64,000 nucleotides of DNA from an uncultured Nitrososphaerota archaeon (GCA_964416155.1 CAYQCW010000007.1:25217-89216); one strand, 5' to 3'; counted from the stretch's first letter, positions 14,130 to 51,634 are shown. Numbers and translations are program-made. Notes: generated by a model from the letters alone, not told the origin.

Positions 14130-14257
14130 GGGCCCGTAGCTCAGACGAGAAAAGTTTAAATATGTCTTGAAGCGTGTGCCACGCGCGGCTCGGAGCAGCA
14201 TGGTAGAGCAGCAGGCTCTTAACCTGAGGGTCGAGGGTTCAAATCCCTCCGGGCCCG
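14130..14257 (+). tRNA. tRNA-Lys (anticodon CUU) with a ~53-nt non-canonical intron in the D-arm region
   Basis: Hand fold: acceptor GGGCCCG/CGGGCCC, D-arm GCTC..AGCATGGTAGAGC, anticodon loop CTCTTAA, T-arm GAGGGTTCAAATCCCTC. The 128-nt span means ~53 nt of insert after the 5' GCTCAG. 27-43 is a G.A mismatch, so the anticodon-stem register is tentative. Confidence 0.6.
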
Positions 14258-14463
14258 CATTGCAAAATTAAAACGTTAAACAAAGCGCGCATATTTCACA
14301 CGCTCGCTGAAAGCTTAAGCACATGCCGTTGTGATAAATAGTGTAAGGATAAAAATGGAGGGAAAACACGCTTGTCTCTAGCATGCTTGGGTAGAGGGCA
14401 TGCTCATCCTGTGGTTATTTTTTTTCTTCGCAGCCTCAACAAGCTTCTGGATGGTTTCGAGCG

Positions 14464-15096
14464 ATGGTGACTTGTCCTTTAACACTTTTCTCAGGTTTTC
14501 ATGTAATTCTTTCGGGTCTGACTGCGCGAGTTTCTCGAATCATGATGATTTTACGTCTAGCGCACGCTATGGGGTTCGTTTCCTTCGCGATGCCCGCCAG
14601 GGAGCTCTTTGAGGACAATGTTCTGGGCGACCTCTTGCCCAGCACCCTGATGAGTCTGAAATACTTTTCTAAGAAGACTAAAACGGATTTCGAGCTGCTA
14701 ATCTATGGCATTGGCCATAGGCTTAAGTACAGGGGAATAAATAGCTATAGCAATCTCTCATGGTTCCTAGAGGCCAAACACGGATGCTATTTTAAGGATG
14801 GCTGGTCGTACGACCTTAGAGATCCTGAAATCAGGTTTGAAGAATGTGATTGCGAGGTCTGCAAAGGGTTAATGCCCCAGGAAATTATTGACCTGATGTT
14901 CAGCGACAAGGAGCTCGGTCAAGACGCTTATCCTCCACAACCTGCTCGACATGAAGGGGGCTTTATCGAGGAGGAAATAGATGGGTGGAGGTTCGAGGGT
15001 AAAGCAGTACCAGAGAAGGTTCTTCGAGGGGGAGCAGGGAAGGGAAGAAAAGGAGGAAGAAGCCTTCCATGTTGTAAGGACCTTCGGAGAGTATGA
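14464..15096 (+). CDS. Hypothetical protein with CxCxxC-x30-H zinc motif (TGT-like zinc site), in AT-rich island
   Basis: ECDCEVCKGL ... PARH. Low-complexity C-terminus overlaps another frame. Likely decayed. Confidence 0.3.
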   Translation: MVTCPLTLFSGFHVILSGLTARVSRIMMILRLAHAMGFVSFAMPARELFEDNVLGDLLPSTLMSLKYFSKKTKTDFELLIYGIGHRLKYRGINSYSNLSWFLEAKHGCYFKDGWSYDLRDPEIRFEECDCEVCKGLMPQEIIDLMFSDKELGQDAYPPQPARHEGGFIEEEIDGWRFEGKAVPEKVLRGGAGKGRKGGRSLPCCKDLRRV

Positions 15097-15214
15097 GATC
15101 CGCGGGGCGGAGAGTGTGGATATGAGCTTCTTAAAGGAGGCGAAGTTATTGGAATCTTTTCTCAAGCCAAGGTTGAAGAAGACAGAGTTGCCTTCAAGCT
15201 GAGTCACGGGATGA

Positions 15215-15919
15215 ACTTGGAGGTATCTGGAAAAAGGAGTTAGAGAAATACTTACTCCAGCAAAAGCAGAGTTATGCGGCTTAATAGCTGCAGACGGTAC
15301 TATTTGTAAATATCGAGGAGAGAAAGGACAAGGCGGCGGGTACGAGGTCTCTAACAAGTGTAAACCACGAACTCGAGGTTTTCAAGGAATTATTCGGAGA
15401 TACTTATAAGTATGACTTTCCACGAACATATTAAACATCATAAAACGAACGAAGGAAGGAGAAAAGGAGCATTATCATGTAGCAACGTATAATAGGAAAG
15501 TAGCCTATGATCTATGGAGCTTCATTAAGGGACCAGACCCCTATGAATTCCACCCGCCTATACAGTACCTTGACGATGAAGGCAAGAGGGCTTATCTAAT
15601 GGGTTTCTTTTCCGGAGACGGTAATGTCTCTATGACTAAAGAAGGCGGGCATGCCATCCGAATCTATTCGTCTTATAAGGAAGGGCTAAAGGAATTAAAA
15701 GAAATGTTTGAAGATTTAGGATTCCATCCGAGCGAAATTCATGAGCAACATGAGAAGCCCACTCTTGGACGACATAGGAAAGAATATAACTACTATTTCA
15801 GTATTCCAGAAGAAGATCACCTGAGGTTCATGGAGGTAGGATCAGAAAAGTTGGGGCATAAAAGAAAGTTTGAACTAATAAAGCTAATAAATGGAAGAAA
15901 GAAAAAGGAGGAGGATTAG
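15215..15919 (+). pseudogene. Double-motif LAGLIDADG homing endonuclease, single frame interrupted by in-frame stop codons
   Basis: Motif 1 ELCGLIAADGTI (15269-15304) and motif 2 YLMGFFSGDGNV (about 15590-15625) lie in the same frame. TGA at 15200 and 15212, TAA at 15407, TGA at 15413 interrupt it. Region is AT-rich relative to flanks. Confidence 0.65.
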
Positions 15920-15924
15920 TTAGA

Positions 15925-16522
15925 ATGACACCTATGGCCGCTACTCTTTGGGTGTGGGGTGATGATTTTGACCATGTTAGGAAGAATTGTGAAAAGTATG
16001 TGAGCAAAAAGTGGAAAGAGAACATAAAGGAATGCAGTATAGAGATCTCCGCCAGAAGGAGGGACGAGGGTATTTGTTACTATATTGTTGTCTATACAAG
16101 TAACCTCCAAAGCATTGGAGACTTGGCCGAAGGCTTATTCGATTCTTTCGAGTGAAGAAGTATATCGAAAATCTATGGAAGAAGTGGAAAAAGAGCTTAG
16201 GGAACGAGAGGGAGGCATCGTTGAAAAATTTAGCGAAGAGCCGGGGGTGAAGTCTGTGGTGCAAGGGCGAAAGATCGTGTTTATTCCTCAAACCAGTCTT
16301 CTCTGCGAATTGAGCTCGAAAATCGCGAATAAGACAGTGATAGAGGTGGTGCATGAGGATTTCTCACCTATGAAGGATTTATTACATTCTTTAAGCAACA
16401 GGATGATTGAAAGAGGATTAGCGGAACAAATTTTGGGCTATGATTGGTGGAAAGGCGTTAACGACCTTAAGATTGGAGACATGGACATACGGGAAGACAA
16501 GGTTCTAGTATGGCTCATCTAA
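15925..16522 (+). other. Two overlapping-frame hypothetical ORF fragments abutting the tRNA-Leu 3' end (possible element remnant)
   Basis: ORFs 15925..16155 and 16085..16522 sit in different frames with no recognisable domains. The second ends 1 bp before tRNA-Leu. Confidence 0.25.
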
Positions 16523-16523
16523 G

Positions 16524-16621
16524 TGCGGGGGGTGGGATTTGAACCCACGAACCCCTTCGGGAAGAGGTCTCTCCCCGAGGTCTTGAGCCTCCCGCCTTTG
16601 GCCTGGCTTGGCGACCCCCGC
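16524..16621 (-). tRNA. tRNA-Leu (anticodon CAA) with 13-nt canonical intron
   Basis: Acceptor GCGGGGG/CCCCCGC, anticodon loop CTCAAG[13-nt intron]A, long variable arm TCCCGAAGGGGTTC, T-arm GTGGGTTCAAATCCCAC; 98 nt total. Confidence 0.8.
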
Positions 16622-16672
16622 CTTCTTCCCTGTAGTAAGACATATTATTTCGGATTGTTTTTAAGTTTTAGG

Positions 16673-16957
16673 ATGAGGCTGAGTGAAGTTTTCGCCAGCA
16701 GGGTTCAGGCGAGGGTTTTAGAGGAGCTTTTAAACGCTCCTCACACTATTTTCACGCAGGTTGAGCTTGCTAGGAGGGCTGGCTGCTCCTCCTCCAGCGT
16801 TGACAGGGCTCTTAAGAACCTTATGAGGCTCGGCTTAATCAGGATTGAGAGGCTTTCAGCCAATAAGATTGTTGCGTTAAATCTTAATAGCAGGGTTGTG
16901 TCCCTCCTCATTCAGTTTAACAGGGATGTGAAGAAGGCTGATAGAGATACTGCTTAG
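16673..16957 (+). CDS. Winged-helix transcriptional regulator (small)
   Basis: MRLSEVFASRVQARVLEELLN...ELARRAGCSSSSVDRALKNLMRLGLI HTH. The upstream part of the listed ORF is antisense to tRNA-Leu and was discounted. Confidence 0.5.
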   Translation: MRLSEVFASRVQARVLEELLNAPHTIFTQVELARRAGCSSSSVDRALKNLMRLGLIRIERLSANKIVALNLNSRVVSLLIQFNRDVKKADRDTA

Positions 16958-16979
16958 AGAGAGGATAAGCGGCAGGGGG

Positions 16980-17594: not shown

Positions 17595-17601
17595 ACCATT
17601 C

Positions 17602-18933
17602 CTACGGATAGTGCCAAGGACTTATGAAGCCATAGGTTTCTCCCAGCCTGTTCTTCTCAAGACCATATCTTTTCAACGGCTTGGTTAAGTGTCTATGGGA
17701 TCTTTCGGGCGGTAGATACGGGTGGTTCACCGTTAAACCCCGTTCCATTACGATTGTCTGAGGCTCCTCAACAGTCTCGCCGCATTCCTCGCAGGCGAAG
17801 CCCTGCCGTAGACCAAGGCTCTTACATTTTCTCCCGCATTTCGGACATGCCGGCGGTGTTCTCCTGATTTTCCTGCACAGTTTTAAAACCTCCATTTTCT
17901 CAGCGTTAACAACCAGTTTTCCCAAATGCTCTTTAACCCCGCCGTAAACCCTTATTTTGTCACCGGGCTCAAGCATGGATGCTGCTTTCTTCAAGCCTCC
18001 TGTAGGAGAGTAGAATGCGCATGAAATCCTTCCTCCGTCTTCAATAGTCACTATAACGTGCCCGCCTCGAATAATCTTCTTGTCGACTACGCTGCCCTCA
18101 ACCCGTGTTGAATCATATTTCTTAACTTGGCTGATTGCAACAGACTCTTCTAGAAAATGCGCGTCAGTACCCTGGTTGGCTTTGAAAATACACCAGCCTT
18201 CAATCTCCTCCTCAGTCTTAACAAGCCTGAACGCGTTGTAGACTGCTTCAGGCGTCTCCCCCCTTATTCCGAAGAGCACCGGATCCCTGCCGTGAGGAGT
18301 TATCAGGATGCGTTTCGTCTCCGGGTCAATATTGTTAAAAGTGTTTTTCGAAGCAAGCTCATCCATGAGGATAACGCTGTCCCGGTCTATTCTACGGGGC
18401 TTCCCATAGTTCTCACTTACCCTGTATGCGAGAAGCTCGAAAGTATAGTCGTCGAAGACAGCTCCAACCGCCGCAAGCGCTCCTACGACTCCAACCTTAG
18501 AAGTCTTCAGGAACCTGTAGGACGCCCCTGTCTCCTCAGCAATCTTCAACGCCTCAACCGGGGAGACCATGCTTCTCAACACCTTCAGGTAGAACTGGTG
18601 GAGCACATCTCCCTTCTGCGGGAGCCTGTTGCTGAAGACGATCGCGGGCTCTGACCTAGGGCTGTTTAAATCCGAAAGCTTTTCCACGATGCTTATGACG
18701 GATCCCGCAACCTCATCGTAAACCTGCTGGCTCTCAACCCTTATCCTTATGCTTACCGCCCCGTTACCCCTTGTCTTCCAAGGAATATTAGGGTTAAGCC
18801 TTACGAGAAGAGGATAGTCTATAAACTGGATGCTCCTCATGCCGTCTAGCTGGGTCACTATTCTCGCAGCAACATGCGTAGTACAGCCGAACACTTCCGA
18901 GTCCGTGTCGTCTATACCTATGTTAAGCAGCAT
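17602..18933 (-). CDS. tiaS: tRNA(Ile2) 2-agmatinylcytidine synthetase
   Basis: N-terminal MLLNIGIDDTDS...GCTTHVAA kinase-like motif characteristic of TiaS; C-terminal CPKCG...CEECG zinc ribbon; 443 aa. Confidence 0.8.
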   Translation of the reverse strand: MLLNIGIDDTDSEVFGCTTHVAARIVTQLDGMRSIQFIDYPLLVRLNPNIPWKTRGNGAVSIRIRVESQQVYDEVAGSVISIVEKLSDLNSPRSEPAIVFSNRLPQKGDVLHQFYLKVLRSMVSPVEALKIAEETGASYRFLKTSKVGVVGALAAVGAVFDDYTFELLAYRVSENYGKPRRIDRDSVILMDELASKNTFNNIDPETKRILITPHGRDPVLFGIRGETPEAVYNAFRLVKTEEEIEGWCIFKANQGTDAHFLEESVAISQVKKYDSTRVEGSVVDKKIIRGGHVIVTIEDGGRISCAFYSPTGGLKKAASMLEPGDKIRVYGGVKEHLGKLVVNAEKMEVLKLCRKIRRTPPACPKCGRKCKSLGLRQGFACEECGETVEEPQTIVMERGLTVNHPYLPPERSHRHLTKPLKRYGLEKNRLGETYGFISPWHYP

Positions 18934-19043
18934 TTCGGCTCAACGCTGAACAAACCTTAAACAGGAACCCCGGCTTTTAAGCATAGCCTTAAATACTCGA
19001 CTGATAAGCTAAGAGGCTGTTTTTCAGGAACAATCTTCCAGAA

Positions 19044-19137
19044 AGCCTCGGGAGGGATTCGAACCCTCGACATGCAGCATCCGCCCAGCCTTTTCCGCTT
19101 ACGAGGCTGCCACTCTACCAGGCTGAGTTACCGAGGC
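19044..19137 (-). tRNA. tRNA-Thr (anticodon CGU) with 20-nt canonical intron
   Basis: Acceptor GCCTCGG/CCGAGGC, D-arm ACTCAGCCTGGTAGAGT, anticodon loop CTCGTA[intron]A with 3' stem GCTGC, T-arm GAGGGTTCGAATCCCTC. Confidence 0.8.
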
Positions 19138-19193
19138 TCGCCAGCATTCTTCGGAAAAGGGGCTTAAAACGTTTTCGCTTCTTAAAAACCAGG

Positions 19194-20207: not shown

Positions 20208-20214
20208 CCTGTCT

Positions 20215-27523: not shown

Positions 27524-27781
27524 CACGAACGCGCTAACGCGTTATCCGTAGACATAGTCCAACAAGCTCTCGAGATGGGAAAATGCAGGATAGTGGAAAT
27601 GCCGGTCAAATTAGTTTCCATTACTACTAAAATTCTAGTCGTGAAAAACATACCTCTACGAATTACTTATCTTTTATTTAACCTAGTGCACGTAAACCGG
27701 AAACCCTGAGCCCTAGTCGGCAATTCCCTGCAAGTAAAAAGTTATTAAATCCCTGCAAGCAGGTTTTCAACAAGCCCGGGA

Positions 27782-27912
27782 AGCCCGGTGGAGCCAACTA
27801 GGGTGCCGATTGTAATGGCAAAGCATCGCGCTAAGACATGGGGGGCTTTGGTGCAATTTCGCGCTTGCGGAGAAACCCCTTGATGAGAGTTCGAATCTCT
27901 CCCGGGCTACCA
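27782..27912 (+). tRNA. tRNA-Gln (anticodon UUG) with two introns (D-region ~30 nt and canonical ~23 nt); CCA encoded
   Basis: Acceptor AGCCCGG/CCGGGCU with A73-CCA. Anticodon arm GGGGG CTTTGG[intron]A CCCCT. T-arm GAGAGTTCGAATCTCTC. 131 nt total, so ~53 nt are intronic. Exact D-arm intron boundaries not resolved by eye. Confidence 0.7.
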
Positions 27913-33005: not shown

Positions 33006-34055
33006 TTAATAGAGCCTGTATCTTAAAATTCCCACTATGCCGCCGATCCTCCTAAGTTTCTCCGCCGACTCGTGTCTGCCGCTGACTATTGTTACTTCAC
33101 CACCATACTGTTCGACAAGTCTTATCATCTCCATCACTCTCTCCCTCAGGAAGCCCGACTGGGAGGCTAGCTTAACGTGTATTATCAGCTGGCTTACCGC
33201 CCCTTTTTCAACAGCCTTCCATGTTTCCTCCAGACCGTAGACAGCCTTCTCCTCAACCAGGCTCTCAAAAAAGCTTTCTATAGCCTTTATCTCGTCGACA
33301 ACCTTCAACTCCCTCGCCACAACCTTCATCTCATTGCTCCTCAGAAACTCGTTTACCGCCGATATTGTTCCCCCGGAAGAGTGGAAGCATCCAGCTACAG
33401 AGGCTTGAAGATCCCTATACTTGCTCTCCATGAGTTTCAAAAGGGCTTCGCGCGTGACGCTGGGGCCTACCAGAATTATCTTCGGCCCACCCTCCTTAAT
33501 CCAGACGCCTCTAAGAGTCTTCAACACTTCCTGGAAAAATCTTACGGCCAAGGCCTCACGCTCCTCAGGAAAGTTTTTCCCAGGAATACTCTGCTCAACC
33601 TCGAGGCTTTCAACAATCCCGTAGTCCTTCACAACAGCCAGCGTAGCGGTTCCAAGCTCAACCGCCACGACAATATACTTCTTCGTGTTCACATCCCGGC
33701 TTAGAATCCTCCTGTGAACAGGAGAGAGCTCCTGCTTCTCAACCACAACTCTGTCCCCCACGCCTATAGTGAGAGTATGATAATGGCCTAGAACACCCTC
33801 CATGTCATCCGGGCATTCTAAAACCCTGCCCCTGAGCTGAATGGTTTCCGACGAAACTTCGAACTCAATCTTCTCAACCATTATTTTCAAAAGAGCCTTG
33901 CGCCTGCTCTTTTCGCCCTTATCAATCTTCAATATTCGCACGGTTTCCGCTGAAGCCAAGTCGCCCTCTTCAATAAGGTGATACACATTCCACAACTCCT
34001 CCCCGGAGAACGGCCTTATCTCTAAGATACCTTTATCATAATCCACTTTAATCAT
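33006..34055 (-). CDS. pelA: Pelota (Dom34 homolog), mRNA surveillance factor
   Basis: 349 aa. N-terminal EELWNVYHLIEEGDL, central and eRF1-like domains, C-terminal GIVGILRYRLY as in Pelota proteins. Confidence 0.9.
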   Translation of the reverse strand: MIKVDYDKGILEIRPFSGEELWNVYHLIEEGDLASAETVRILKIDKGEKSRRKALLKIMVEKIEFEVSSETIQLRGRVLECPDDMEGVLGHYHTLTIGVGDRVVVEKQELSPVHRRILSRDVNTKKYIVVAVELGTATLAVVKDYGIVESLEVEQSIPGKNFPEEREALAVRFFQEVLKTLRGVWIKEGGPKIILVGPSVTREALLKLMESKYRDLQASVAGCFHSSGGTISAVNEFLRSNEMKVVARELKVVDEIKAIESFFESLVEEKAVYGLEETWKAVEKGAVSQLIIHVKLASQSGFLRERVMEMIRLVEQYGGEVTIVSGRHESAEKLRRIGGIVGILRYRLY

Positions 34056-34361: not shown

Positions 34362-37079
34362 ATGGTGAGGAGAAGAATATTGATAATGCTCTTCGTCTTC
34401 ACACTGATTACACAACCATTTTACCAATTATATGAAACGGCCTCTCAAGCATCTCCGGAAGCTTTTGAAGGCACCGGTCCAGTTTTACAGTCTAGAATTA
34501 TTACACAGAGTTCCATAGCTACCTTCATTAAGAAAAAGGTTATACTTCCCAGTTATCAGTATGCTTCAGATAAAATAGAGTATCCTATTCCTGAGAATTC
34601 AGTTACCTTTGGAACATTCGGCCCCGCAACATGGAGCAACCTTTACTGGACGACGAGAGATTATCAAAGCCCTATTAAAGATGGTTTCACTCTTTTCTCG
34701 AACGAGGTCTTCCAGATACGTTACACTCCCTTCGTCGAAGGCGACTACTTCAGGATTAACAGCACCTATCCATGGATTCTCCAGAACTTCACTGTTCCAT
34801 CCTCCTATGATAATTTTGAAGTTAAATATGTTTGGCTGGTTGTAAGGGTTTACTCTGGAAGCGTGAGGCTTCACGCAGAAATATGGAACTATGGAATGAT
34901 TAGTTTCGGGACCTCCACGGAGTCGGTGACTGTAACAGGTCCCTACGATTGGTGGATCGCCATGAAGATGATTAACCCAAGAGCCTTATATGCAGGCAAT
35001 GTCTACAGGCTTGAAGTAGTTTGGGAAACAGGTTCCGGAGCTGATTTGAAACTACTAAGTAGTCCTAAGGATGTTGACGATAACGCGCAGGGCAATGCCA
35101 GATTTTTCAACACGACTTCCGGCAATGTGGAGAACATAGTTGGGAAGATGCTTGAAGGAGCCCTTACTCATCCAGTCAGCAGCACCTACTCGACCAGTTT
35201 CAGCTCATGGGCTAGAGCCCTCTCTCTGCAAAGCTATCGGATCTATCTTCACGGCCGCAACATACCTAGGAGCAGCATAATGATGAAGGTCAGATCAGCG
35301 GCCTTTGGCACTGGAGAGACCCCTGAGATACGTTTAACATACCCGTTGGATGAGCTGGCGTTTTGGACAGTGGTTCAGGGCTCGACAAGCTTCTCAGGAG
35401 GAACTGTTGAAGTATCTTCCAACTTAATGTCGGTAGAGCAGAGCAGAACCTCATATGATGGAAATCATCCGCCGCCCTTCTACAGACCTTTCGCCTCCCT
35501 ATCAATATTCACGGATAATGCTGGTAAGCCTTGGGGAGAATGGGAGATAAGCGGAGGAACATGGGAAGCATATGTTGGAGACGCTTATAGTAGCCTCTAT
35601 GCTCTGCCGACTTACAGAGTTGAACAGAAGGAGTTTGGTTTAAAAGCCACCTACCCGCTCTTCTTCTATTCTCCGGCTTCACCCTCCTACGGCTTCCTGA
35701 ACTTTACAGCGAGGTTCAATTATACTATTGAGGTCTCCTCCCCAGGGCCAGAATTCTACTCCAGCTACTCCGTTTCACCCCGAAGCAACGCGTCCTGGAA
35801 TATTTCTAATATGCTCCTCTCTTTCTCAGCCTCACCCCACTCTTCCGTAACCATCAAAATAGGGCCGGTTCCGAGAGACTGGGTTGTTCAAAGAGCATTC
35901 GTCACCCCGGGTGCAGGCGGTGGAACACCTTCCGTATCTATTGTGAACGATGACATAACGATAAATGGAATAGTAATGGGGGCATCTAACACGTATTTCG
36001 GTAGGGCGGAAATCCGTGTGAAAGCAGACAACTATTTGGAGACTCAATCAGCCTACGTAAGGTTCAGGTGGATGAATACCTACTCCTCAGTCTTCCTGTT
36101 GAACGACACCATAAGGATAGAGGCGAGAGCAGCCTCAGCCAACCCGAGTTTCCCCCCGGGAGTGATCTTGATCAAGGCGGTTGGACCAGCGGGAGTTTTA
36201 TTCAACCAGTCTTTAAACCAGCTTGATCAAAACGGAGTGGTCACCGGAAGCCTCCGTCTAAGCCAGGCAGGACAATACTTGGTTAGCGTGACATATGTTT
36301 CGTCAGACGGTCTTAGAGTAGGAGCAGCAGAAGCCTCTTTCAATACTTTAAGAATCTCCGTGTTCATCGATAAGGATATCGTCCTATTAAGCTCCCCCAC
36401 TCTCACTGTTGAACTAAACTCTTCAGACGTTTCGCCGATAAGCTCAGCTAGGTTTGTCTTAACATCTCCCAACGGCTCAACCAGGATACTTATGTTCGAC
36501 CAAGCGGGTGGCAGATTCATCAGAGAACTATCTTTCTCGCAGACAGACCCTTCTGCCATAGGCAACTGGAGTATTTTCCCCTTAGTATCCTTTGAAAACG
36601 GGGTTGGTAGAGAATTACTCGCGGTCAGCTTCTTATTAGTGGACGATATCCCGCCAACCATATCTAACATAACACGCCTACCAGTGGAAGTGACGTTCAT
36701 AGAGGAGGTTAACATCACGTGCACAGTTGCCGACAAGGGTACAGGAGTCAGGACAGTCCTAGTCTCCTACAGCTTTGGAGGCGTGACTGGTAACGTGACT
36801 GCTAAACAAGTAGGACCCAGCAAGTATTCCGCCGTAATCCCGAGGCATCCTCCCCTCACCATGGTTTCATACAGGGTCTACGCAATCGACAACAGTGGGA
36901 ATATAAGCATCTCTGAGAACCTTGCCTACAGCGTTGGGATACCCCTATGGCTTCTAATTCTAGTGGTGCTGGCTTTATCCTCAGCCGTACTAATAACATG
37001 GCTGTACTTGAAAAAACGCACGCCGCCTCCATCACCGCCGCCCCCTCCTCCTACCCCTGAGATAAGTAGCCCCATATAG
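34362..37079 (+). CDS. Large (905 aa) extracellular/surface protein with C-terminal TM anchor and Pro-rich tail
   Basis: N-terminal signal sequence, many N-x-S/T sequons, C-terminal TM (IPLWLLILVVLALSSAVLITWLYL) followed by PPPSPPPPPPTPE. Confidence 0.5.
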   Translation: MVRRRILIMLFVFTLITQPFYQLYETASQASPEAFEGTGPVLQSRIITQSSIATFIKKKVILPSYQYASDKIEYPIPENSVTFGTFGPATWSNLYWTTRDYQSPIKDGFTLFSNEVFQIRYTPFVEGDYFRINSTYPWILQNFTVPSSYDNFEVKYVWLVVRVYSGSVRLHAEIWNYGMISFGTSTESVTVTGPYDWWIAMKMINPRALYAGNVYRLEVVWETGSGADLKLLSSPKDVDDNAQGNARFFNTTSGNVENIVGKMLEGALTHPVSSTYSTSFSSWARALSLQSYRIYLHGRNIPRSSIMMKVRSAAFGTGETPEIRLTYPLDELAFWTVVQGSTSFSGGTVEVSSNLMSVEQSRTSYDGNHPPPFYRPFASLSIFTDNAGKPWGEWEISGGTWEAYVGDAYSSLYALPTYRVEQKEFGLKATYPLFFYSPASPSYGFLNFTARFNYTIEVSSPGPEFYSSYSVSPRSNASWNISNMLLSFSASPHSSVTIKIGPVPRDWVVQRAFVTPGAGGGTPSVSIVNDDITINGIVMGASNTYFGRAEIRVKADNYLETQSAYVRFRWMNTYSSVFLLNDTIRIEARAASANPSFPPGVILIKAVGPAGVLFNQSLNQLDQNGVVTGSLRLSQAGQYLVSVTYVSSDGLRVGAAEASFNTLRISVFIDKDIVLLSSPTLTVELNSSDVSPISSARFVLTSPNGSTRILMFDQAGGRFIRELSFSQTDPSAIGNWSIFPLVSFENGVGRELLAVSFLLVDDIPPTISNITRLPVEVTFIEEVNITCTVADKGTGVRTVLVSYSFGGVTGNVTAKQVGPSKYSAVIPRHPPLTMVSYRVYAIDNSGNISISENLAYSVGIPLWLLILVVLALSSAVLITWLYLKKRTPPPSPPPPPPTPEISSPI

Positions 37080-37206: not shown

Positions 37207-37309
37207 CGCCGGCGGGAAGACTCGAACTTCCGACCAACGGGTTAACAGCCTCAGCCTCTTTCCGAGCCCGCTGCTGTGGGCCTTAAACTACCTGCTGAGC
37301 TACGCCGGC
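37207..37309 (-). tRNA. tRNA-Pro (anticodon CGG, tentative) with two introns (12-nt at 22/23 and 18-nt canonical)
   Basis: Acceptor GCCGGCG/CGCCGGC. D-arm GCTCAGCAGGTAG[TTTAAGGCCCAC]AGC. Anticodon arm GCGGG CTCGGA[18 nt]A CCCGT. T-arm GGAAGTTCGAGTCTTCC. 103 nt. A37 rather than G37 makes the identity less certain. Confidence 0.55.
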
Positions 37310-38737: not shown

Positions 38738-39108
38738 GGGGGCTAGGCCCGATGGAAACGTATTTATGATGCCTCTCACAATCTTTTCCTGGGCGGCAGG
38801 TAGGCTCGGGGAGCTCGCCATTCCCTGAACCCGAAACTGGCGACACGCGGGGAGCCGATAACCGTGGGGACAGGGCTGCCTCAACGCAACCGGCTGCAAC
38901 AGGTCTGTGAAAGCCATCCTTACTGGGCAGGAGTAGCAGGCTCGCCTGCCGTAGGGTGGGCGCGTCTGCCTAATTACCGAATCCGCTAGGCCCGGGAGGG
39001 AGCAACGGTCTGGTAAGCTACCTGCGTTGGTAAGGGATGGCTGGAGGGTAAACCTGTTGCGTGTGGGTTGTGATGGAGGGGCTCGACCCTCATGGGGCTG
39101 CCGCCTCT
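38738..39108 (+). ncRNA. Signal recognition particle RNA (7S/SRP RNA)
   Basis: GC-rich ~370-nt noncoding stretch with the helix-8 (domain IV) signature AGGCCCGGGAGGGAGCAACGG, comparable to conserved AGGUCCGGAAGGAAGCAGCC, and Alu-domain-like GGCGGCAGGTAGGCTCGGGG. A T-rich tract follows. End coordinates approximate. Confidence 0.65.
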
Positions 39109-41264: not shown

Positions 41265-41824
41265 TTAGAGTTAAACATAGACTGTGGCGCCACAGGTGAA
41301 GCACTGGTTGAAATAGATGATGAGAATGGGGTTCCGATTCAGGGCTTTAGTCTAGACGAGAGCGACCGGGTGTGGGGAAATCACCTGAGGAAGAAGGCGT
41401 CGTGGAGAAATGGGAAGACAGAGCAGATTTCCCAGATTTCCCCCTTCTGTCAAGACGGGTGCGAACCTGAAGAGATAGTTCAAGGAGCCGATCTTTATAT
41501 CTAAAATATACGTGTTTTTGGATTGTGTAAGATTAAATATCTAACCTTACCCTTACCTTGTGTAATTCTTTAGCGCGCGCTACTCGCTTTCCTAAGCCTA
41601 GAGGATTGGCTTAAGCCTGAGGAGGTTGGGAGGCTAGCTGGGAAGCTGGGCGTTGATCCTAAGATCCTGTTCCTGAGTTTTTCAGACGCTTTGGCCGACG
41701 AGATCGCAAGGAGGTTTTGAGATGAGCGATAAGCCTATTTGGAGCGCGCACGCGCTTCCTGCTCTTCGTCGAGAGAGTTAACCGGCTTAATGATGGAGGA
41801 ACATTAATTTATTAGAACGCCCTG

Positions 41825-41912
41825 GCCGGGATATTCGGTTTTTAACTTTCGAACCCGGGTCGGGAGGGTGACAGCCTCCAATGCTAACCTTTACACCACC
41901 AGGGCTCGGGTG
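41825..41912 (-). tRNA. tRNA-Asp (anticodon GUC) with a 16-nt non-canonical intron in the T-loop
   Basis: Acceptor GCCCTGG/CCAGGGC. Anticodon arm GGAGG CTGTCAC CCTCC. T-arm CCGGG TTCGAAA[GTTAAAAACCGAATAT]CCCGG. 88 nt. Not flagged by any ORF. Confidence 0.6.
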
Positions 41913-45553: not shown

Positions 45554-45601
45554 AAAATAACTGGAACACGCTTGATTAGAAAGGCTCATCTTCGCAAGCT
45601 G

Positions 45602-46852
45602 CTATTTCAGTATGCCGACTATTCCTCCGAAGCCCTTGTAGAGCATCATTCCCTCCTCGGTGGCTGTCGATATTAGCTCGAGCTGAACGTTTTTCTGAGA
45701 GGCTGTTTCAATGAAACGGTCTAGGAGGCTCTCTTTCTCAGCAACATAAAGGCTTGTTGCACCGCATTTTGGGCATGGTGTCGAGGATGTTTTTGCTGGA
45801 AGAGTTATCAGTTCTTGAAACGGGTGTTGCTCAACAGTCTCGTAGTCGCATCTGCCGCATCTAATCTTAACCATGAATATGTCTAGGGCCTCTGAGAAAA
45901 GCATGAGCCTAACCTTTCCGCTTTGAACCGCGTTCTCAACCTCTTTAAGCCCGTAGACAACCCTGTCCGGCTCCGTGCCCACAAGCTTAAGGAAGCTGCC
46001 CACCAGGTTCCTCTCCTTTATCAAGTCGAGCTCCTGAAGCTTTTCAGACGCTTTCCCAAGTATCTCCTTTATGCCCTGGTGACCCGTGTAGGAGGTGTCC
46101 ACCACGGCCAGTATTTTTCTCCTAAGCTCGTAGTGGATGAAATCTTTTTCGAGAAACATATCCTTCGTTGGCCCCGGCCCTCCTACTATCAACCCTTTAA
46201 CATCAGTGTTCTGAAGGTAAACCTCGTTCAGACGTTCAGCAACACGCCTGTAGAAATCGTTGAGCTCCATCTCCCTCAATCTTTCAAACCTTCTGGCCGA
46301 CTGGCCCCCCTTGCTCGTCTTACCTGGGACGCCGGAGGTCAACTCGTCTTTCACGTCGATATTCCTGCCCGTTGCGAGCGCTATGGTCGCCTCAGAATTA
46401 TCGATGGACAGGATTAGATACTTATCCTTCTTCTCAAGCATTTCTTTAAGAGGCTCGACGTAAAACTTGTCGTCGCAACCATAGTATGAGAGGGTTATTT
46501 TCTCAGGGGGCTCTATCACGTGTATCTCAATATTCTCCGAACCAGGGGTCTCCCCGGGGATTGCCCCGCAGAATATGACGAGCCCGTTTTCAGGAGCCTC
46601 GTCGTAAAGCTTAAGCCTCTGCTGCACCTTAACTATAGCGTCCTGAACATTCTTCCTCGTTGTTCTAGACTTAATGTTAGACGCCTTCCCATACTCCTCC
46701 CTCAGGTTCGTCACCACCTCGCTTATTCTTCTCCCCGGAGGTATGTAGAGGCTGATCAACTCTGTCCCCCGACCCTTTTTTTCAGAGAGTTCTCTAAGAG
46801 TTCTTCTCGAAACATACTCCTTCACCGATGTTGCAAGCGTTTTTTCACTCAA
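45602..46852 (-). CDS. prf1: Peptide chain release factor aRF1
   Basis: GGQ motif (KGGQSARRF), NIKS motif (ASNIKSRTTRKN), C-terminal zinc ribbon. Start set at TTG (..SEKTLATS..) because the listed 503-aa ORF overruns divergent pyrH. Confidence 0.8.
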   Translation of the reverse strand: MSEKTLATSVKEYVSRRTLRELSEKKGRGTELISLYIPPGRRISEVVTNLREEYGKASNIKSRTTRKNVQDAIVKVQQRLKLYDEAPENGLVIFCGAIPGETPGSENIEIHVIEPPEKITLSYYGCDDKFYVEPLKEMLEKKDKYLILSIDNSEATIALATGRNIDVKDELTSGVPGKTSKGGQSARRFERLREMELNDFYRRVAERLNEVYLQNTDVKGLIVGGPGPTKDMFLEKDFIHYELRRKILAVVDTSYTGHQGIKEILGKASEKLQELDLIKERNLVGSFLKLVGTEPDRVVYGLKEVENAVQSGKVRLMLFSEALDIFMVKIRCGRCDYETVEQHPFQELITLPAKTSSTPCPKCGATSLYVAEKESLLDRFIETASQKNVQLELISTATEEGMMLYKGFGGIVGILK

Positions 46853-46924
46853 AACACGGTTCTCCGGGGAGTCCTCGCTGACCCCATATATTAATATTTC
46901 ACTCCCTAGGGAGATAAGGGAGAA

Positions 46925-47614
46925 ATGAGGATAGTGCTGAAAATAGGGCATGCTCTCTTCAAGGGCCACTCGATAGACTTGGAGAAGATACGTGGGACGG
47001 CGGACGCGATACTGAGGCTGCGCAACGCTGGTCATAGGGTTGTTGTCGTGGTCGGCGGGGGTGAGCCCAGCAGGACCTTCATAAAGGCGGCTAGAAGCCT
47101 CGGGGCGGACCATGCTACTTGCGACGAGGTCGGCATAATGGTCACCTGGATTAACGCTCTCCTACTGTCCATAGCGTTCGGAGAGGCCTCGAGCAGAAAC
47201 ATCATAAGCAGTTTTGAAGAGCTCGAGAGGCAGTTGGACACGGCTGGGGGTAAAATACTCGTCGGAGGAGGCTTCACGCCGGCCCAGTCGACAGACGCTG
47301 TCGCAGCACTAATAGCTGAGAGGCTGAAAGCCGATCTTCTGATAAAGACTACTGATGTCGACGGCGTTTATAACGTTGATCCTAAGAAAAACCCGGATGC
47401 GAAGCTGCTTAAAGAGGTGAGCGTGAGAAGGCTCAGGAAAATACTGGGGCAGGAGTCGACACCGGGCGGATACAAGCTTCTAGACCAGGTTTCCCTCTCA
47501 ATACTTGAAAGGTCAAGAATACCGGTTGTAATCGTAAACGGTTCCGATCCTGAAAACATTATTAGAGCAGCCTCTGGGGAGAAAGTAGGCACGAGAATAA
47601 ACTATTCCGAATAA
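46925..47614 (+). CDS. pyrH: Uridylate (UMP) kinase
   Basis: Amino-acid-kinase fold motifs VVVVVGGGEPSRTF, ILVGGGFTPAQSTD. Confidence 0.85.
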   Translation: MRIVLKIGHALFKGHSIDLEKIRGTADAILRLRNAGHRVVVVVGGGEPSRTFIKAARSLGADHATCDEVGIMVTWINALLLSIAFGEASSRNIISSFEELERQLDTAGGKILVGGGFTPAQSTDAVAALIAERLKADLLIKTTDVDGVYNVDPKKNPDAKLLKEVSVRRLRKILGQESTPGGYKLLDQVSLSILERSRIPVVIVNGSDPENIIRAASGEKVGTRINYSE

Positions 47615-47940: not shown

Positions 47941-48072
47941 TGGGGCCAGGGCGATTTGAACGCCCATTCACGGGTTTCCTCCCAGCTCCAACCTTTCCTC
48001 ATCTCCCTCGCCGGGATCCTTGGCTTGCATGCGGCTGGAGCCCGCCGTCCTGCCTGGTTAGACTATGGCCCC
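47941..48072 (-). tRNA. tRNA-Trp (anticodon CCA) with 59-nt canonical intron
   Basis: Acceptor GGGGCCA/TGGCCCC. Anticodon arm GCGGG CTCCAG[59 nt]A CCCGT. T-arm GGGCGTTCAAATCGCCC. 132 nt. Confidence 0.8.
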
Positions 48073-48533: not shown

Positions 48534-48576
48534 AGTTTAAGCCTGGCTCGACGAAGAGTATCGTGAACTGTTAGCG

Positions 48577-48930
48577 ATGGGGTTGAGATTCGGGTCTAAG
48601 AGGGAGCAGGAGCGTCTGCTTAAGAGGCTTGGGATAAGGCTTGAGGAGGTGCAGGGCGTTAGAAGCGTAGTTATTGAGACTGACAGCGAGAGGATTGTTT
48701 TCGACTCCCCGGCTGTGACTAAGATGGTTAGCGGTGGTCAGGAGATATACCAGGTTATCGGGGAGCCCATGGTTGAGAAGAAGGAGAAGGAGGAGTATGT
48801 TCCCCTGGAGGAGGATGTTCTGCTTGTGGCGAAGCAGACCGGTAGGAGTGTTGAGGACGCAAGGAAAGCCTTGATAACGACTGAGGGCGATATCGCTCAA
48901 GCGATTGTTCTGCTTCAATCAGGCCGGTAG
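48577..48930 (+). CDS. nac: Nascent polypeptide-associated complex protein (NAC alpha homolog with UBA domain)
   Basis: NAC domain plus C-terminal UBA (VEDARKALITTEGDIAQAIVLL). Confidence 0.85.
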   Translation: MGLRFGSKREQERLLKRLGIRLEEVQGVRSVVIETDSERIVFDSPAVTKMVSGGQEIYQVIGEPMVEKKEKEEYVPLEEDVLLVAKQTGRSVEDARKALITTEGDIAQAIVLLQSGR

Positions 48931-48977
48931 GGAAAGGCATATTTGCTTCCCCCATGTTTTCTTAAGGGTCTTTAAAA

Positions 48978-49505
48978 ATGGTATGCGAGATATGCGGGGC
49001 TAGGGCGCCGAAACTTAGGAGAACAATCATAGAGGGCAGCGTTATGAATGTTTGCCCAGACTGTTTCAACACTCTTACTAAGAAGACTCCTGTTGAAAAC
49101 GTGTTTGCCAAGCCAGGTGGAACCCTGGTGAAGAAGCCGGTTGCCGCTAAGCCGGTTACGGTTAAAAAGATTGAAAAGAAGACTCCTGTTGAAAACGTCT
49201 CTCTAGCAGAATCCGTGGAGCTTGCGAGCAATTACAGGGAGCTTATTAAGAGTAGGAGGAGGAAGCTCGGCTGGAGCGAGGAGGACCTTGGGGAGAAAAC
49301 AGGTTTGAAAACGTCTCTGATAAAGAAGATTGAGACCGGCAAGATAACTCCCTCCGTGGTTGACGTTAGGAAGATTGAGGACGCTTTGAAAATAAAGCTG
49401 CTTACGAGTATTAAGCAGGAAGCGGCTCCCGTTAAGCATCTTGCTAAGAGCTCTTCTTCAGCCTTAACCCTGGGGGATATTTTGCGCGACGAGGCTGCTG
49501 AATAG
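48978..49505 (+). CDS. Multiprotein-bridging factor 1 (zinc ribbon + XRE-type HTH)
   Basis: N-terminal CEICG...CPDC zinc ribbon, C-terminal HTH (LIKSRRRKLGWSEEDLGEKTGL...). Confidence 0.8.
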   Translation: MVCEICGARAPKLRRTIIEGSVMNVCPDCFNTLTKKTPVENVFAKPGGTLVKKPVAAKPVTVKKIEKKTPVENVSLAESVELASNYRELIKSRRRKLGWSEEDLGEKTGLKTSLIKKIETGKITPSVVDVRKIEDALKIKLLTSIKQEAAPVKHLAKSSSSALTLGDILRDEAAE

Positions 49506-49525
49506 CCGGGGAGGAGACGCCCAGC

Positions 49526-50101
49526 ATGGTTCAAACCGGCTGCGAAATAGGGGTTCTCCGCCTCGGCCACAGGATATTCAGGGATAAGAGGGTGACTATG
49601 CATGCTTTCCTTGTTTCAAGAGCCTTCGGGGCAACCTCGTTCATCATTCACGGAGATAGGGATTCTAAGCTTGAGGAGAAAGCCAGAAGGGTTGTTAGAG
49701 ACTGGGGTGGGAGAATAAGCATCGGCTACAGTGGAGACTGGTTGAAAACAGTTGAGGACTGGAGGAGCAGGGGGAGCCTGATCCTTCACCTAACGATGTA
49801 CGGCATGCCCGTTGAAAACGTTATCGAGAGCATCAGGGTGGAGAGCAGGCTCCTAGTGATAATCGGCGGCCGGAAGGTTCCCCGAGAAGCCTACGAGGTT
49901 TCGGATTACAATGTCGCAGTAACAAATCAGCCTCACTCAGAGATAGCCGCGCTCGCAATGTTTCTAGACAGGTTTTTCAAGGGCCAAGAGCTCTACATGC
50001 AACATGAGAAGGCAAGGGTCTTCGCGGTTCCCTCACCCAGAGGAAAAGTAATATGTAGGAACCCGTTTTACAAGGAGGAGGAGAAAGTTGAGCGAGGATA
50101 G
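49526..50101 (+). CDS. tRNA (cytidine56-2'-O)-methyltransferase aTrm56 (SPOUT)
   Basis: VLRLGHRIFRDKRVTMHAFLVSRAFGA and later SPOUT knot motifs. Confidence 0.75.
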   Translation: MVQTGCEIGVLRLGHRIFRDKRVTMHAFLVSRAFGATSFIIHGDRDSKLEEKARRVVRDWGGRISIGYSGDWLKTVEDWRSRGSLILHLTMYGMPVENVIESIRVESRLLVIIGGRKVPREAYEVSDYNVAVTNQPHSEIAALAMFLDRFFKGQELYMQHEKARVFAVPSPRGKVICRNPFYKEEEKVERG

Positions 50102-50615
50102 GCTTGACGCCGTAAGCCATCTTTACACGCAGATCGTAGGCCTCATAGGGGGAGACGAGGCTATAGAGGTTGCTGAGGCATTAATACAGCTTAAGAAGGC
50201 GAGCGAGGAGCAGATATCCTCTAAAACCGAGTTGAGAGTAGGAGACGTGAGGAAAATACTTTTCAAGCTTTACGAGAAGGCGTTAATAACCTACGAGGAG
50301 CTGAAGAAGGAGGAGGGAGATAAGATAAAAAGCATATTCTTATGGATGCCGCTCATAGACCAGGTTGAGGGAATAGCTGCAAACTACAGGCGTATGATTC
50401 TACAGAAGCTCAGGGAGAAGCTCGCATTCGCAGAGGGCAACGAGCTCTACCACTGTGGAAAAGAAGGCCATAAAATACTTGTTTTCGACGAGGCTGTTGA
50501 AAACCTTTTCAGATGCCCCATGTGCAGCGAACCCCTCTTCAGAATGAATAAGGAGGAGTACGTTAGGAAACTGAACACACTGATAAAAACAATTGAAAAT
50601 GAGGAGAAAGAGTAG
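50088..50615 (+). CDS. tfe: Transcription factor E (TFIIE-alpha homolog)
   Basis: Winged helix plus C-terminal zinc ribbon CGKEGHKILVFDEAVENLFRCPMC. Confidence 0.75.
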   Translation: MSEDRLDAVSHLYTQIVGLIGGDEAIEVAEALIQLKKASEEQISSKTELRVGDVRKILFKLYEKALITYEELKKEEGDKIKSIFLWMPLIDQVEGIAANYRRMILQKLREKLAFAEGNELYHCGKEGHKILVFDEAVENLFRCPMCSEPLFRMNKEEYVRKLNTLIKTIENEEKE

Positions 50616-51162
50616 AATACCAAATGAAGAGAAATGCGTCAAGATTCTTTTAGAAGAAGGGGTTAACAGCAGTGTTCTTAGACACGCCTTGAAAGTCAGC
50701 GAGGTCGCTAAAGACTTAGCAGACAGAGTAGAGTCAAAAGGATACCGTGTGAATAAGAAGCTGGTTACGGCGGGAGCACTTCTCCACGACATTGGAAGAG
50801 CAGTCACCCACGATGTTTCACACGGAGTAATAGGCGGCCAAATAGTTAGAAGAAGGAAACTAGATGAACAGCTTGCGAGAATAGTTGAGAGACACGTGGG
50901 AGCAGGAATATCCGAGGAAGAGGCTGCGAAGCTGAAACTAGGCACAATAAGCCTAATCCCGGAGACCGTTGAGGAGAAAATAGTCTGCTACGCCGACAAG
51001 CTTGTAGACAGCGATAAGAAGATAGAGTACACGGAAACCCTGAAATACTTCAAGGAGAAACTGGGCGTAGACCACCCTGCAATAAGAAGGCTCGAAGAAC
51101 TAGACGAGTTTTTCCAAGAAATCCTCCGAAAGGACGATAGGAACGAAAAACACAATTGTTGA
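50593..51162 (+). CDS. HD-domain phosphohydrolase
   Basis: H...HD motif (LLHDIGRAV), 189 aa. Confidence 0.7.
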   Translation: MKMRRKSRIPNEEKCVKILLEEGVNSSVLRHALKVSEVAKDLADRVESKGYRVNKKLVTAGALLHDIGRAVTHDVSHGVIGGQIVRRRKLDEQLARIVERHVGAGISEEEAAKLKLGTISLIPETVEEKIVCYADKLVDSDKKIEYTETLKYFKEKLGVDHPAIRRLEELDEFFQEILRKDDRNEKHNC

Positions 51163-51299
51163 AACCCTTCAAGAAAACTAAATAGTTAAACAAGGATGTA
51201 AAGGAAAGCAGGTGTTAGTTTTCAGCTAGCAAACCTTTCACGTGCTAAGCGGAATCATAACCTCGATAGGTTTACCTCGCAATGTTTAATACAGCTAAG

Positions 51300-51313
51300 A
51301 AAGGTTTTTATCC
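51300..51313 (+). promoter_or_regulatory. TATA-like box upstream of tRNA-Lys(UUU)
   Basis: AAAGGTTTTTATCC about 25 bp upstream of the tRNA 5' end. A similar AAAAATTTAATAGC lies about 27 bp upstream of tRNA-Ile (51497-51510). Confidence 0.4.
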
Positions 51314-51335
51314 ACCCTAGAACACTGAGCAAACA

Positions 51336-51480
51336 GGACCCGTAGCTCAAATTTAAGTACTAGATTCGCGTGATGGCGTGAGTCTAGTACTTGAAGAGCA
51401 GCCTGGTTAGAGCGCTGGGCTTTTAACCCAGAGCCGCGCGCGGCGGGTAAATGTTGCGGGTTCAATTCCCGCCGGGTCCG
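51336..51480 (+). tRNA. tRNA-Lys (anticodon UUU) with two non-canonical introns (D-loop ~50 nt; variable-loop ~19 nt)
   Basis: Acceptor GGACCCG/CGGGTCC. D-arm GCTC[...intron...]AGCCTGGTTAGAGC. Anticodon arm CTGGG CTTTTAA CCCAG. GC-rich insert CCGCGCGCGGCGGGTAAAT before T-arm GCGGGTTCAATTCCCGC. Confidence 0.75.
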
Positions 51481-51534
51481 TTACTTATAACGTTCAGAAA
51501 AATTTAATAGCTGGCTTAAAGATGAAGGAGACAA

Positions 51535-51634
51535 GGGCCAGTGGCCCAGCCTGGTTAAGGCGCCCGGCTGATAATAGATGAATATAAATCTATTTGAAAC
51601 CGGGAGATCGCCGGTTCGAATCCGGCCTGGCCCA
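51535..51634 (+). tRNA. tRNA-Ile (anticodon GAU) with 25-nt canonical intron
   Basis: Acceptor GGGCCAG/CTGGCCC. Anticodon arm CCCGG CTGATA[25 nt]A CCGGG. T-arm GCCGGTTCGAATCCGGC. Confidence 0.8.

Follow-up and report, generated by a model that had tools for sequence, protein, structure and literature searches.

This study concerns nine transfer RNA (tRNA) genes that lie between positions 14,130 and 51,634 of a 64,000-nucleotide (nt) stretch of DNA from an uncultured Nitrososphaerota archaeon (GCA_964416155.1 CAYQCW010000007.1:25217-89216), hereafter called the window. We are confident that all nine are functional tRNA genes of an archaeal host related to Brockarchaeota and that each is split by short introns, between one and three in number, of the protein-spliced bulge-helix-bulge (BHB) type. 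The structure of the genes, the boundaries of their introns, the potential of the junctions to form BHB motifs, the dispensability of the inserts and their polymorphism among related genomes are all shown by the analysis. An earlier reading of the same sequence, the original prediction, had described nine tRNA genes of 88-145 nt, all containing introns, with 13 introns in total; its outer coordinates and range of gene lengths agree with ours, and independent placement gave the same intron count.

Nine interrupted tRNA genes

The genes were sought as intact T-arms whose adjoining 3' strand of 7 nt has a perfect complement upstream, and the tRNA-Asp gene, whose T-loop is interrupted, was added separately. 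Four lie on the plus strand: tRNA-Lys(CUU) (14130-14257; precursor of 128 nt, one intron, mature form of 74 nt), tRNA-Gln(UUG) (27782-27909; 128 nt, three introns, 72 nt mature with an encoded CCA), tRNA-Lys(UUU) (51336-51480; 145 nt, two introns, 75 nt mature) and tRNA-Ile(GAU) (51535-51634; 100 nt, one intron, 75 nt mature). Those on the minus strand are the class II tRNA-Leu(CAA) (16524-16621; 98 nt, one intron, 85 nt mature), tRNA-Thr(CGU) (19044-19137; 94 nt, one intron, 74 nt mature), tRNA-Asn(GUU) (37207-37309; 103 nt, two introns, 73 nt mature), tRNA-Asp(GUC) (41818-41905; 88 nt, one intron, 72 nt mature) and tRNA-Trp(CCA) (47941-48072; 132 nt, one intron, 73 nt mature). The acceptor/T-arm scan found all of the genes except Asp, which came from a weak Rfam match together with its BHB motif; Leu and Thr were also found by ARAGORN and Rfam, Asn by relaxed ARAGORN on the locus, and Ile by Rfam (55.3 bits) and by ARAGORN -i, which placed a 25-nt intron.

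When the 13 introns were removed in silico, nine tRNAs of 72-75 nt (85 nt for Leu) remained, and ARAGORN called every one of them: Lys-CUU, Leu-CAA, Thr-CGU, Gln-UUG, Asn-GUU, Asp-GUC, Trp-CCA, Lys-UUU and Ile-GAU. Eight of these isotypes had been assigned correctly from the outset, while the gene at 37.2 kilobases (kb), taken for Pro-CGG, is really Asn-GUU. Six genes carry one intron, two (Asn and Lys-UUU) carry two and Gln carries three, not two introns in each of four genes as had been thought. Non-canonical positions are occupied by 8 of the 13 introns, and the earlier placements at 15/16 in both Lys genes, 22/23 in the 37.2-kb gene, 43/44 in Lys-UUU and 59/60 in Asp were recovered; the canonical 37/38 introns stood for Leu, Thr, Gln, Trp and Ile but not for the supposed Pro gene. 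Each of the nine genes keeps its exons colinear over its 88-145 nt, which is not the arrangement of split or permuted tRNA genes, and a TATA-like A/T-rich box lies upstream of each, at about -28 to -40.

Default tRNA finders had been expected to miss or mis-call most of these genes, and they did. Run with default settings on the 64-kb window, ARAGORN called three of the nine, one truncated and two with the intron unrecognised (Leu, 16523-16621; Thr, 19043-19138; Lys-UUU, 51387-51480, starting inside the gene). Rfam at its gathering threshold found five, of which two were truncated yet pseudo-complete (14186-14257 and 51387-51480), so the true 5' exon of Lys-UUU was left out by both programs. 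At E<=10 Rfam added weak partial matches at 37214-37291 and 41852-41905, the latter (21.3 bits, truncated) being its only match to the Asp gene. The Trp and Gln genes were missed both by default ARAGORN and by Rfam, also at the relaxed cutoff. The intron option of ARAGORN (-i), which the original prediction had put forward as a check, recovered five of the nine genes, among them Trp with a 59-nt intron.

A T-arm-only scan, inspection of GC-rich intergenic islands and relaxed ARAGORN gave no convincing tenth tRNA in the window, these being scans that could overlook a gene with introns in T-arm and acceptor stem alike. Extra matches of relaxed ARAGORN fell within open reading frames (ORFs) and look spurious, and a scan for split T-arms with acceptor stems was too noisy to use. 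The window contained no tandem repeats. Annotation of this lineage with default tRNA finders will under-count and mis-assign tRNAs (here four to six of nine genes were missed or truncated), and a careful hand reading still converted the Asn gene to Pro; mis-annotation of this sort distorts completeness estimates of metagenome-assembled genomes (MAGs) and inferences of codon usage.

BHB motifs at the intron junctions

Intron positions were fixed beforehand from the cloverleaf, so that the BHB score provides an independent test of them. The geometry used was a central helix of 4 bp, with a bulge of 3 nt in either strand and cleavage following the second nucleotide of the bulge, reportedly the standard geometry of the archaeal motif from the work of Marck and Grosjean in 2003 and from structural work on EndA. 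The score, from 0 to 10, is the sum of central-helix pairs and of the inner and outer helices, each flank capped at 3 bp, and all same-length placements elsewhere in the nine precursors served as controls. For all 13 introns the observed score was reached by 0-9% of the control placements, and for nine of them by fewer than 2.5%; for Asp 59/60 and Lys-UUU 43/44, no same-length placement elsewhere equalled it.

Folding at each junction, a further check that had been proposed, showed that a BHB or relaxed BHB motif is possible at 13 of 13, with Thr the weakest. Four are strict hBHBh' motifs (helices given as central/outer/inner base pairs): the third Gln intron (27852-27874, +; 23 nt, canonical 37/38; 4/7/4), the second Asn intron (37250-37267, -; 18 nt, anticodon stem 30/31; 4/4/3), the Asp intron (41832-41847, -; 16 nt, T-loop 59/60; 4/5/3) and the second Lys-UUU intron (51432-51450, +; 19 nt, junction of anticodon stem and variable loop 43/44; 4/2/4). 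The other nine are relaxed. Four of these have a full central helix (4/4) and a single flanking helix. The two D-loop introns at 15/16, in Lys-CUU (14145-14198, +; 54 nt) and Lys-UUU (51351-51401, +; 51 nt), both pair exon GCTC with intron GAGC and have inner helices of 4 bp (with no outer helix, an HBh' form) and 20 bp, respectively. The first Gln intron (27792-27810, +; 19 nt, 10/11) has an inner helix of 3 bp and 1 outer pair, and the second (27822-27835, +; 14 nt, D-loop/D-stem junction 21/22) an inner helix of 2 bp. Four more combine a central helix of 3/4 with good flanks: Leu (16569-16581, -; 13 nt, 37/38; outer helix 6 bp, both 3-nt bulges present), Trp (47976-48034, -; 59 nt, canonical 37/38; outer 5 bp), Ile (51574-51598, +; 25 nt, canonical 37/38; outer and inner helices of 5 bp each) and the first Asn intron (37276-37287, -; 12 nt, D-stem 22/23), a BHB/bulge-helix-loop type in which GCCC faces exon AGGT with an outer helix of 2 bp. 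The Thr intron (19080-19099, -; 20 nt, 37/38 or equivalently 36/37) forms two to three of the four central pairs in strict register.

The predicted spliced junctions, marked here by a slash, include CGG/GCTGTTAA in Asn, GGTGG/TGTAATGGCAA/ACATG in Gln and TTCGAA/TCCCGG in Asp, and the A15 that splicing at 15/16 would leave in Lys-UUU fits U48.

In the pathway that we envisage, transcription of each gene, directed by an A/T-rich promoter box of its own some 30 nt upstream, would give an interrupted precursor, which would fold at each junction into a BHB with a 4-bp central helix between two 3-nt bulges (strict in four cases, relaxed in nine). An EndA of broad specificity, heterotetrameric or of a similarly permissive type, would then cut in both bulges, and an RNA ligase would join the exons to give standard tRNAs. 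The exon-joining ligase would be of the RtcB type. Cleavage of non-canonical introns with relaxed BHB motifs by EndA of the (alpha-beta)2 and epsilon2 types is described in two earlier papers (PMC4033280; PMC5829648).

Intron presence and absence in orthologous genes

Related genomes supplied eight loci through a 905-amino-acid protein of the window and ten loci around homologues of its TiaS and aRF1 proteins; 16 of these carry orthologues and are labelled L0xx. The 40 orthologues of the nine genes were each aligned to the spliced sequence of the window. Their exons are 82-100% identical to those of the window, mostly >92%, and the inserts differ in presence, length and sequence. Intron-less orthologues fixed the boundaries of 8 of the 13 introns. 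The intron-less allele equals the predicted spliced junction exactly for Gln 21/22, Gln 37/38, Asn 30/31, Asp 59/60, Lys-UUU 15/16, Lys-UUU 43/44 and Ile 37/38; for Thr it fixes the site only, since position 38 differs.

The Gln gene illustrates how individual inserts can be separated in this way. The 21/22 insert is absent in L008, L010 and L012, whose sequence is the spliced product of the window, GGCAAACATGGGGGG, and present in L003 and L013; the 37/38 insert is absent in L003, L012 and L013 (loop CTTTGGA). A Gln gene with two introns, as first described, was considered and rejected: the D-arm cannot be built by a single excision in the D region, and the second insert is separately dispensable. 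The 10/11 insert is present in all five orthologues at 18-20 nt, and the intron strand of its central helix, GCCG, GCTG or ACCG, pairs with exon CGGT every time; a metagenome scan for the spliced 10/11 junction gave one chance match that is not a tRNA. In the 5' leader of this gene (27773-27781, +) the acceptor sequence is repeated (AGCCCGGGA, then AGCCCGGTGG), and the arrangement CCCGGGAAGCCCGG is kept in L003, L008, L010, L012 and L013. The repeat gives a second possible 5' end and could pair with the 3' acceptor strand.

Among the remaining genes, the Asp intron is absent in L015 and L018, where TTCAAAT or TTCGAAT is intact, and a 15-nt intron stands at the site in L016 and L017. The Lys-UUU genes of L008 and L018 lack the 15/16 intron (GCTCAACCTGGTTAGAGC), those of L005 and L016 have one of 19 nt and 21 nt there, respectively, and the 43/44 intron is absent in all four orthologues (CCCAGATGTTGCGGG). 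The Ile intron at 37/38 is missing from L008 (CTGATAACCGGG), which has a 59/60 intron instead, and measures 17 nt in L005 and 12-13 nt in L018. The Thr intron is missing from L012, L013 and L014, whose loops read CTCGTAA or CTTGTAA; in L009 the site holds an intron of 16 nt, for which hand pairing gave a central helix of 4/4, two 3-nt bulges and a 2-bp inner helix. The exons of the Lys-CUU orthologue in L009 are identical at 74 of 74 positions, with an intron of 31 nt at the same place. The Asn 22/23 intron is found in all eight orthologues (13-21 nt; hand-paired central helix 4/4 with GCCT) and the Trp 37/38 intron in all four (63-69 nt), where the four bases that pair with the anticodon loop differ among orthologues and three to four of the four pairs are kept (hand-paired). 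The placements at Gln 10/11, Asn 22/23, Lys-CUU 15/16 and Trp 37/38 are supported by the cloverleaf, by the BHB and by pairing preserved through sequence change.

For tRNA-Leu(CAA) an intron-less gene with an unusually long variable arm had to be considered, as both ARAGORN and Rfam (42.7 bits) accept the 98-nt sequence without an intron. That structure opposes G27 to G43 as a mismatch and extends the variable region to about 27 nt, retaining the ACCTCGGGGAGAG segment, whereas placement at 37/38 gives both 3-nt bulges and a 6-bp outer helix. An insert of 13-19 nt stands at 37/38 in all five full-length orthologues, and a sixth copy, in L011, shows it too although a contig edge ends that gene. 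The 19 nt inserted in L012 are unrelated in sequence and cannot form the 3' strand of the anticodon stem, whereas the downstream ACCTCTTCCCGAAGGGG is conserved; because the intron-less structure cannot pair there, we rule it out for Leu and consider it highly improbable overall.

The same comparison bears on whether some interrupted loci might be decaying pseudogenes, or genes broken by insertions, that are never spliced. Expression is not proven by the sequence of the window, the Thr BHB is weak, and an insertion of 23 nt sets the Lys-CUU intron apart from that of L009. Against this, exon identity stays at 82-100% between genomes whose proteins share only 70-90%, and the inserts are free to diverge; a BHB is possible at every insert, a promoter box is retained at every gene, and the window holds no uninterrupted duplicate of any of the nine. 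We judge decay or breakage to be quite improbable. An origin of the interruptions in assembly or binning of metagenome-derived sequence is less credible still, to the point of being negligible. All relatives come from MAGs or metagenome contigs, and no protein on record matches the window exactly; yet assemblies made independently, by several projects (NCBI, ENA and JGI) and from different springs, share these intron positions and show the divergence typical of orthologues.

Several points nevertheless weigh against the interpretation as nine spliced, functional genes. The Thr junction forms a poor BHB, a 4-bp central helix there needing a 5-nt 3' bulge, and its predicted loop, CTCGTAT, has T at position 38 where relatives with CTCGTAA have A. 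Several intron boundaries can slide by 1-5 nt with the product unchanged, and the rule for the cut follows general knowledge of the archaeal motif and not a tool. The sampled relatives include no intron-less allele for Lys-CUU 15/16, Leu 37/38, Gln 10/11, Asn 22/23 or Trp 37/38. Splicing, the cutting and joining enzymes, and expression are inferred from the gene structures, and no EndA or ligase gene was seen in the window, where 20 otherwise unannotated ORFs were searched against Pfam and the remaining ORFs were assessed through Pfam-annotated homologues in related loci.

The 37.2-kb gene encodes tRNA-Asn

The gene at 37.2 kb is tRNA-Asn(GUU), with its second intron at 30/31. It had been parsed as GCGGG-CTCGGA...A-CCCGT, the anticodon arm of a tRNA-Pro(CGG) with a D-stem intron and a canonical 37/38 intron, and splicing at 37/38 does yield a formally valid cloverleaf that ARAGORN calls tRNA-Pro(cgg). 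However, the 37/38 placement scores 2/7/0, with a central helix of 2/4 and no inner helix, whereas excision of GCTCGGAAAGAGGCTGAG after G30 gives the strict 4/4/3 motif and the loop CTGTTAA. This loop is found in all eight orthologues. Seven of the eight, including the closest relative, L005, lack the 30/31 insert altogether, so that GCGGG or GCGGA followed by CTGTTAA is read directly; the eighth, L003, has a 19-nt insert at 30/31 (BHB 4/4/4) in which the would-be anticodon is CCA and not CGG. Relaxed ARAGORN on the unspliced locus likewise returned tRNA-Asn(gtt). Its discriminator base, G, and its acceptor stem, GCCGGCG, are typical of Asn rather than Pro. The Pro assignment is thus effectively refuted, and we give it next to no credence.

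Sequences within the Lys introns and a recurrent hexamer

The two matches that Rfam scored as complete tRNAs (14186-14257 and 51387-51480) raised the idea that both Lys D-loop introns contain a promoter and a pseudo-5'-exon: a TTTAAATA/TTTAAGTA box is present, and the 3' part of the intron pairs at 6 of 7 positions with the 3' acceptor strand. We rejected the idea because the segments concerned are the inner helix of the BHB and a strand of its central helix (GAGC), and because the Lys-CUU intron of L009 lacks the 23 nt that form the pseudo-acceptor. These 23 nt (14168-14190, +) are a GC-rich insertion, TGAAGCGTGTGCCACGCGCGGCT, absent from the otherwise similar 31-nt intron of L009, and together with the intron GAGC they make up the pseudo-5' half behind the Rfam match at 14186-14257.

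The hexamer AAATAT, often inside a TATA-box-like TAAATATAT, occurred in 9 of 48 distinct introns belonging to five tRNA/position classes, where about 0.5 would be expected from the 6-mer frequencies of the window. In the window it was found in the Lys-CUU intron (14145-14198) and the Ile intron (51574-51598), and in relatives in Asn 59/60 (L001, L004, L006), Gln 37/38 (L010), Trp 37/38 (L005, L018), Lys-UUU 15/16 (L016) and Lys-CUU 15/16 (L009). The recurrence could reflect common ancestry of transposed introns, or merely A/T-rich loops.

An antisense element in the tRNA-Trp intron

The Trp intron was compared at five loci (window 47976-48034, -; L005 20458-20649; L008 20391-20530; L016 5865-6019; L018 approximately 8970-9200). 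It contains an invariant 10-nt element, AGGTTGGAGC, complementary to GCTCCAG/CC across the exon/intron boundary, and the rest of the intron is mostly variable. In five of five, the minimum-free-energy fold of the anticodon arm plus intron is the 9-10-bp duplex that the element forms with the anticodon loop and intron bases 1 and 2, and this duplex excludes the BHB. In RNA form the element (AGGUUGGAGC) is preceded 4 nt upstream by GAGAUGA, a C-box-like motif (6 of 7 positions) that comes after a small hairpin, GAUCCC...GGGA (GAUCCC...GGGAGAUGA). This C-like box matches 6 of 7 positions in three of the five orthologues and is weaker in the other two.

A box C/D guide was taken to have a C box (RUGAUGA) and a D box (CUGA) in a kink-turn and an antisense stretch ending beside D or D', with the fifth paired nucleotide as target. 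The position at which a D box would target C34 reads GGGA, GUGA, GGGA, UUAA and GUAA in the five introns and is not conserved, and no conserved D or D' box (CUGA) and no Rfam match were found in the Trp intron. The element may guide ribose methylation of C34 (Cm34) from within the intron. In Haloferax pre-tRNA-Trp, too, the guide duplex is reported to exclude the BHB. The box C/D guide for Cm34 in other archaeal pre-tRNA-Trp, as outlined in a secondary account (Clouet d'Orval 2001, cited in PMC7668247), resembles the present intron in its antisense to the anticodon loop region and in a C-like box; here, by contrast, there is no conserved D or D' box, a single antisense element, an intron of 59-69 nt and no Rfam match.

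Host lineage and gene neighborhood

The 905-amino-acid protein adjoining the Asn gene (34362-37079, +), which has a proline-rich C-terminal tail and no Pfam domain, has 22 homologues, all in uncultured genomes, one of them labelled Candidatus Brockarchaeota and the others Thermoproteota archaeon. A scan of species representatives with this protein found eight loci, including Brockarchaeota GD2_1 and DRTY-6.bins.80 (71% identity), and the closest homologue is in JZ-2_201709_bins_51 (87%). Its homologues are confined to the Brockarchaeota-like clade, and it could serve as a lineage marker. TiaS (17602-18933) and aRF1 (45602-47113) each belong to a tight clade of 67-96% identity, followed by a gap to about 45-59% in Bathyarchaeia and others. 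The closest homologues of these three proteins come from hot-spring MAGs (Tengchong, Tibet) labelled Candidatus Brockarchaeota, Thermoproteota archaeon or Nitrososphaerota, with no named Thermoproteales genome among them. The GC content of the window is about 47-48%, and that of GD2_1 and DRTY-6.80, from springs at 60-62 degrees C, is 47.1-47.5% (PMC8065059). The NCBI taxonomy treats Brockarchaeota as a separate phylum. From the protein homologues, the matching GC content and the NCBI placement we infer that the host is a hot-spring archaeon related to Candidatus Brockarchaeota and not a member of the Thermoproteales, of which the intron pattern had been called a hallmark.

The window is rich in tRNA and translation genes. 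TiaS, the tRNA-Ile2 agmatidine synthase, is encoded on the minus strand between the Leu and Thr genes, and the archaeal signal recognition particle RNA (38793-39104, +; Rfam RF01857, 133 bits) lies between the Asn and Asp genes, being also found in L005, L006 and L008. Near the Trp and Lys-UUU genes, an ORF at 49526-50101 (+) is a homologue of an L016 gene annotated Trm56. Two proteins of the eRF1 family are present, aRF1 itself (minus strand) and a Pelota-like paralogue of 349 amino acids (33006-34055, -). The aRF1 ORF has 503 amino acids from its first possible start, versus 416-428 in homologues, and the true start is probably downstream.

Intron turnover in the lineage

At least one intron was found in 38 of the 40 orthologues, for a total of 62, the uninterrupted genes being only the Thr genes of L013 and L014. 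In Asn, the 22/23 intron, present everywhere, is joined by others at 30/31 (window and L003), 38-41 (L002, L006, L008), T-stem 50-53 (L002) and 59/60 (L001, L004, L006, L008, L018). Lys-UUU combines 15/16 with 43/44 in the window and with 58/59 in L005, has 15/16 alone in L016, and has an intron at about 38/39 alone in L008 and L018. The Ile intron alternates between 37/38 and 59/60 among genomes, and Trp has extra D-arm and T-loop introns in L005, L016 and L018. As judged from these comparisons, tRNA introns in this lineage are nearly universal and appear to be gained, lost and relocated quickly between close relatives.

Two further loci deserve mention. The syntenic intron-less Thr gene of L013 (9828-9901; JAFNIT01, a Brockarchaeota MAG) has anticodon TGT where CGT stands in the window and in the remaining relatives, a switch of anticodon at an orthologous locus. 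L015, the closest aRF1 relative, encodes a tRNA-Leu(UAA) (780-960, -) that appears to be interrupted at two or more non-canonical positions: within the 3' D-stem strand, and in the variable arm by a long intron containing TTTAAATATATG.

Within the searchable literature no paper was found that connects Brockarchaeota with tRNA introns, and the paper describing the phylum does not mention tRNA (PMC8065059). A broader proposal, for which we hold belief and doubt in roughly equal measure, is that the Brockarchaeota-related lineage is a further, undescribed archaeal group in which nearly all tRNA genes are interrupted (9 of 9 in the window, 38 of 40 in relatives), with introns moving among 15/16, 22/23, 30/31, 37/38, 38-41, 43/44, 50-53 and 59/60 on the timescale of species divergence, and in which the antisense element of the Trp intron acts as a minimal self-acting guide for C34 ribose methylation. 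The phenomenon and its mechanism are already well established, and the present data raise no new question and propose no new mechanism. They add a lineage that is neither Thermoproteales nor Asgard to the archaea with near-saturating tRNA intron loads, and relatives with many differences in intron presence and position within otherwise identical exons are well suited to studying how BHB introns are gained, lost and moved.

Comparison with known systems

Thermoproteales (Pyrobaculum, Caldivirga, Thermofilum) are reported in summaries of earlier work to carry introns in about 70% of their tRNA genes, with a maximum of three per gene and evidence for intron transposition (PMC4033280 and PMC4090602, summarising Sugahara 2007/2008 and Fujishima 2010). 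The genes described here resemble theirs in having short BHB introns at canonical and non-canonical sites, with the published 22/23, 30/31 and 59/60 recurring, up to three introns per gene, relaxed BHB forms and rapid differences between close relatives. Unlike those hosts, ours has its relatives among Candidatus Brockarchaeota and unclassified Thermoproteota MAGs; against their 70% stand 9 of 9 genes in the window and 38 of 40 in relatives, a small sample that is not genome-wide. Positions 10/11 and 43/44 fall outside the list of Thermoproteales positions given in PMC4090602, a list in that paper and not the primary tables. In the Asgard Atabeyarchaeia and Freyarchaeia, 92-95% of tRNA genes have introns, more than half have several, and many positions are non-canonical (PMC11291895), so that a high tRNA intron load is not confined to Thermoproteales; these archaea belong to a different archaeal kingdom and live in mesophilic wetland soil. 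Finally, population-level presence/absence polymorphism of tRNA introns among close relatives of Caldiarchaeum subterraneum has been interpreted as ongoing gene disruption (PMC3293823). That case concerns a single population and includes split genes, whereas the polymorphism seen here is between relatives at the species level, with all genes colinear and no split or permuted genes seen.

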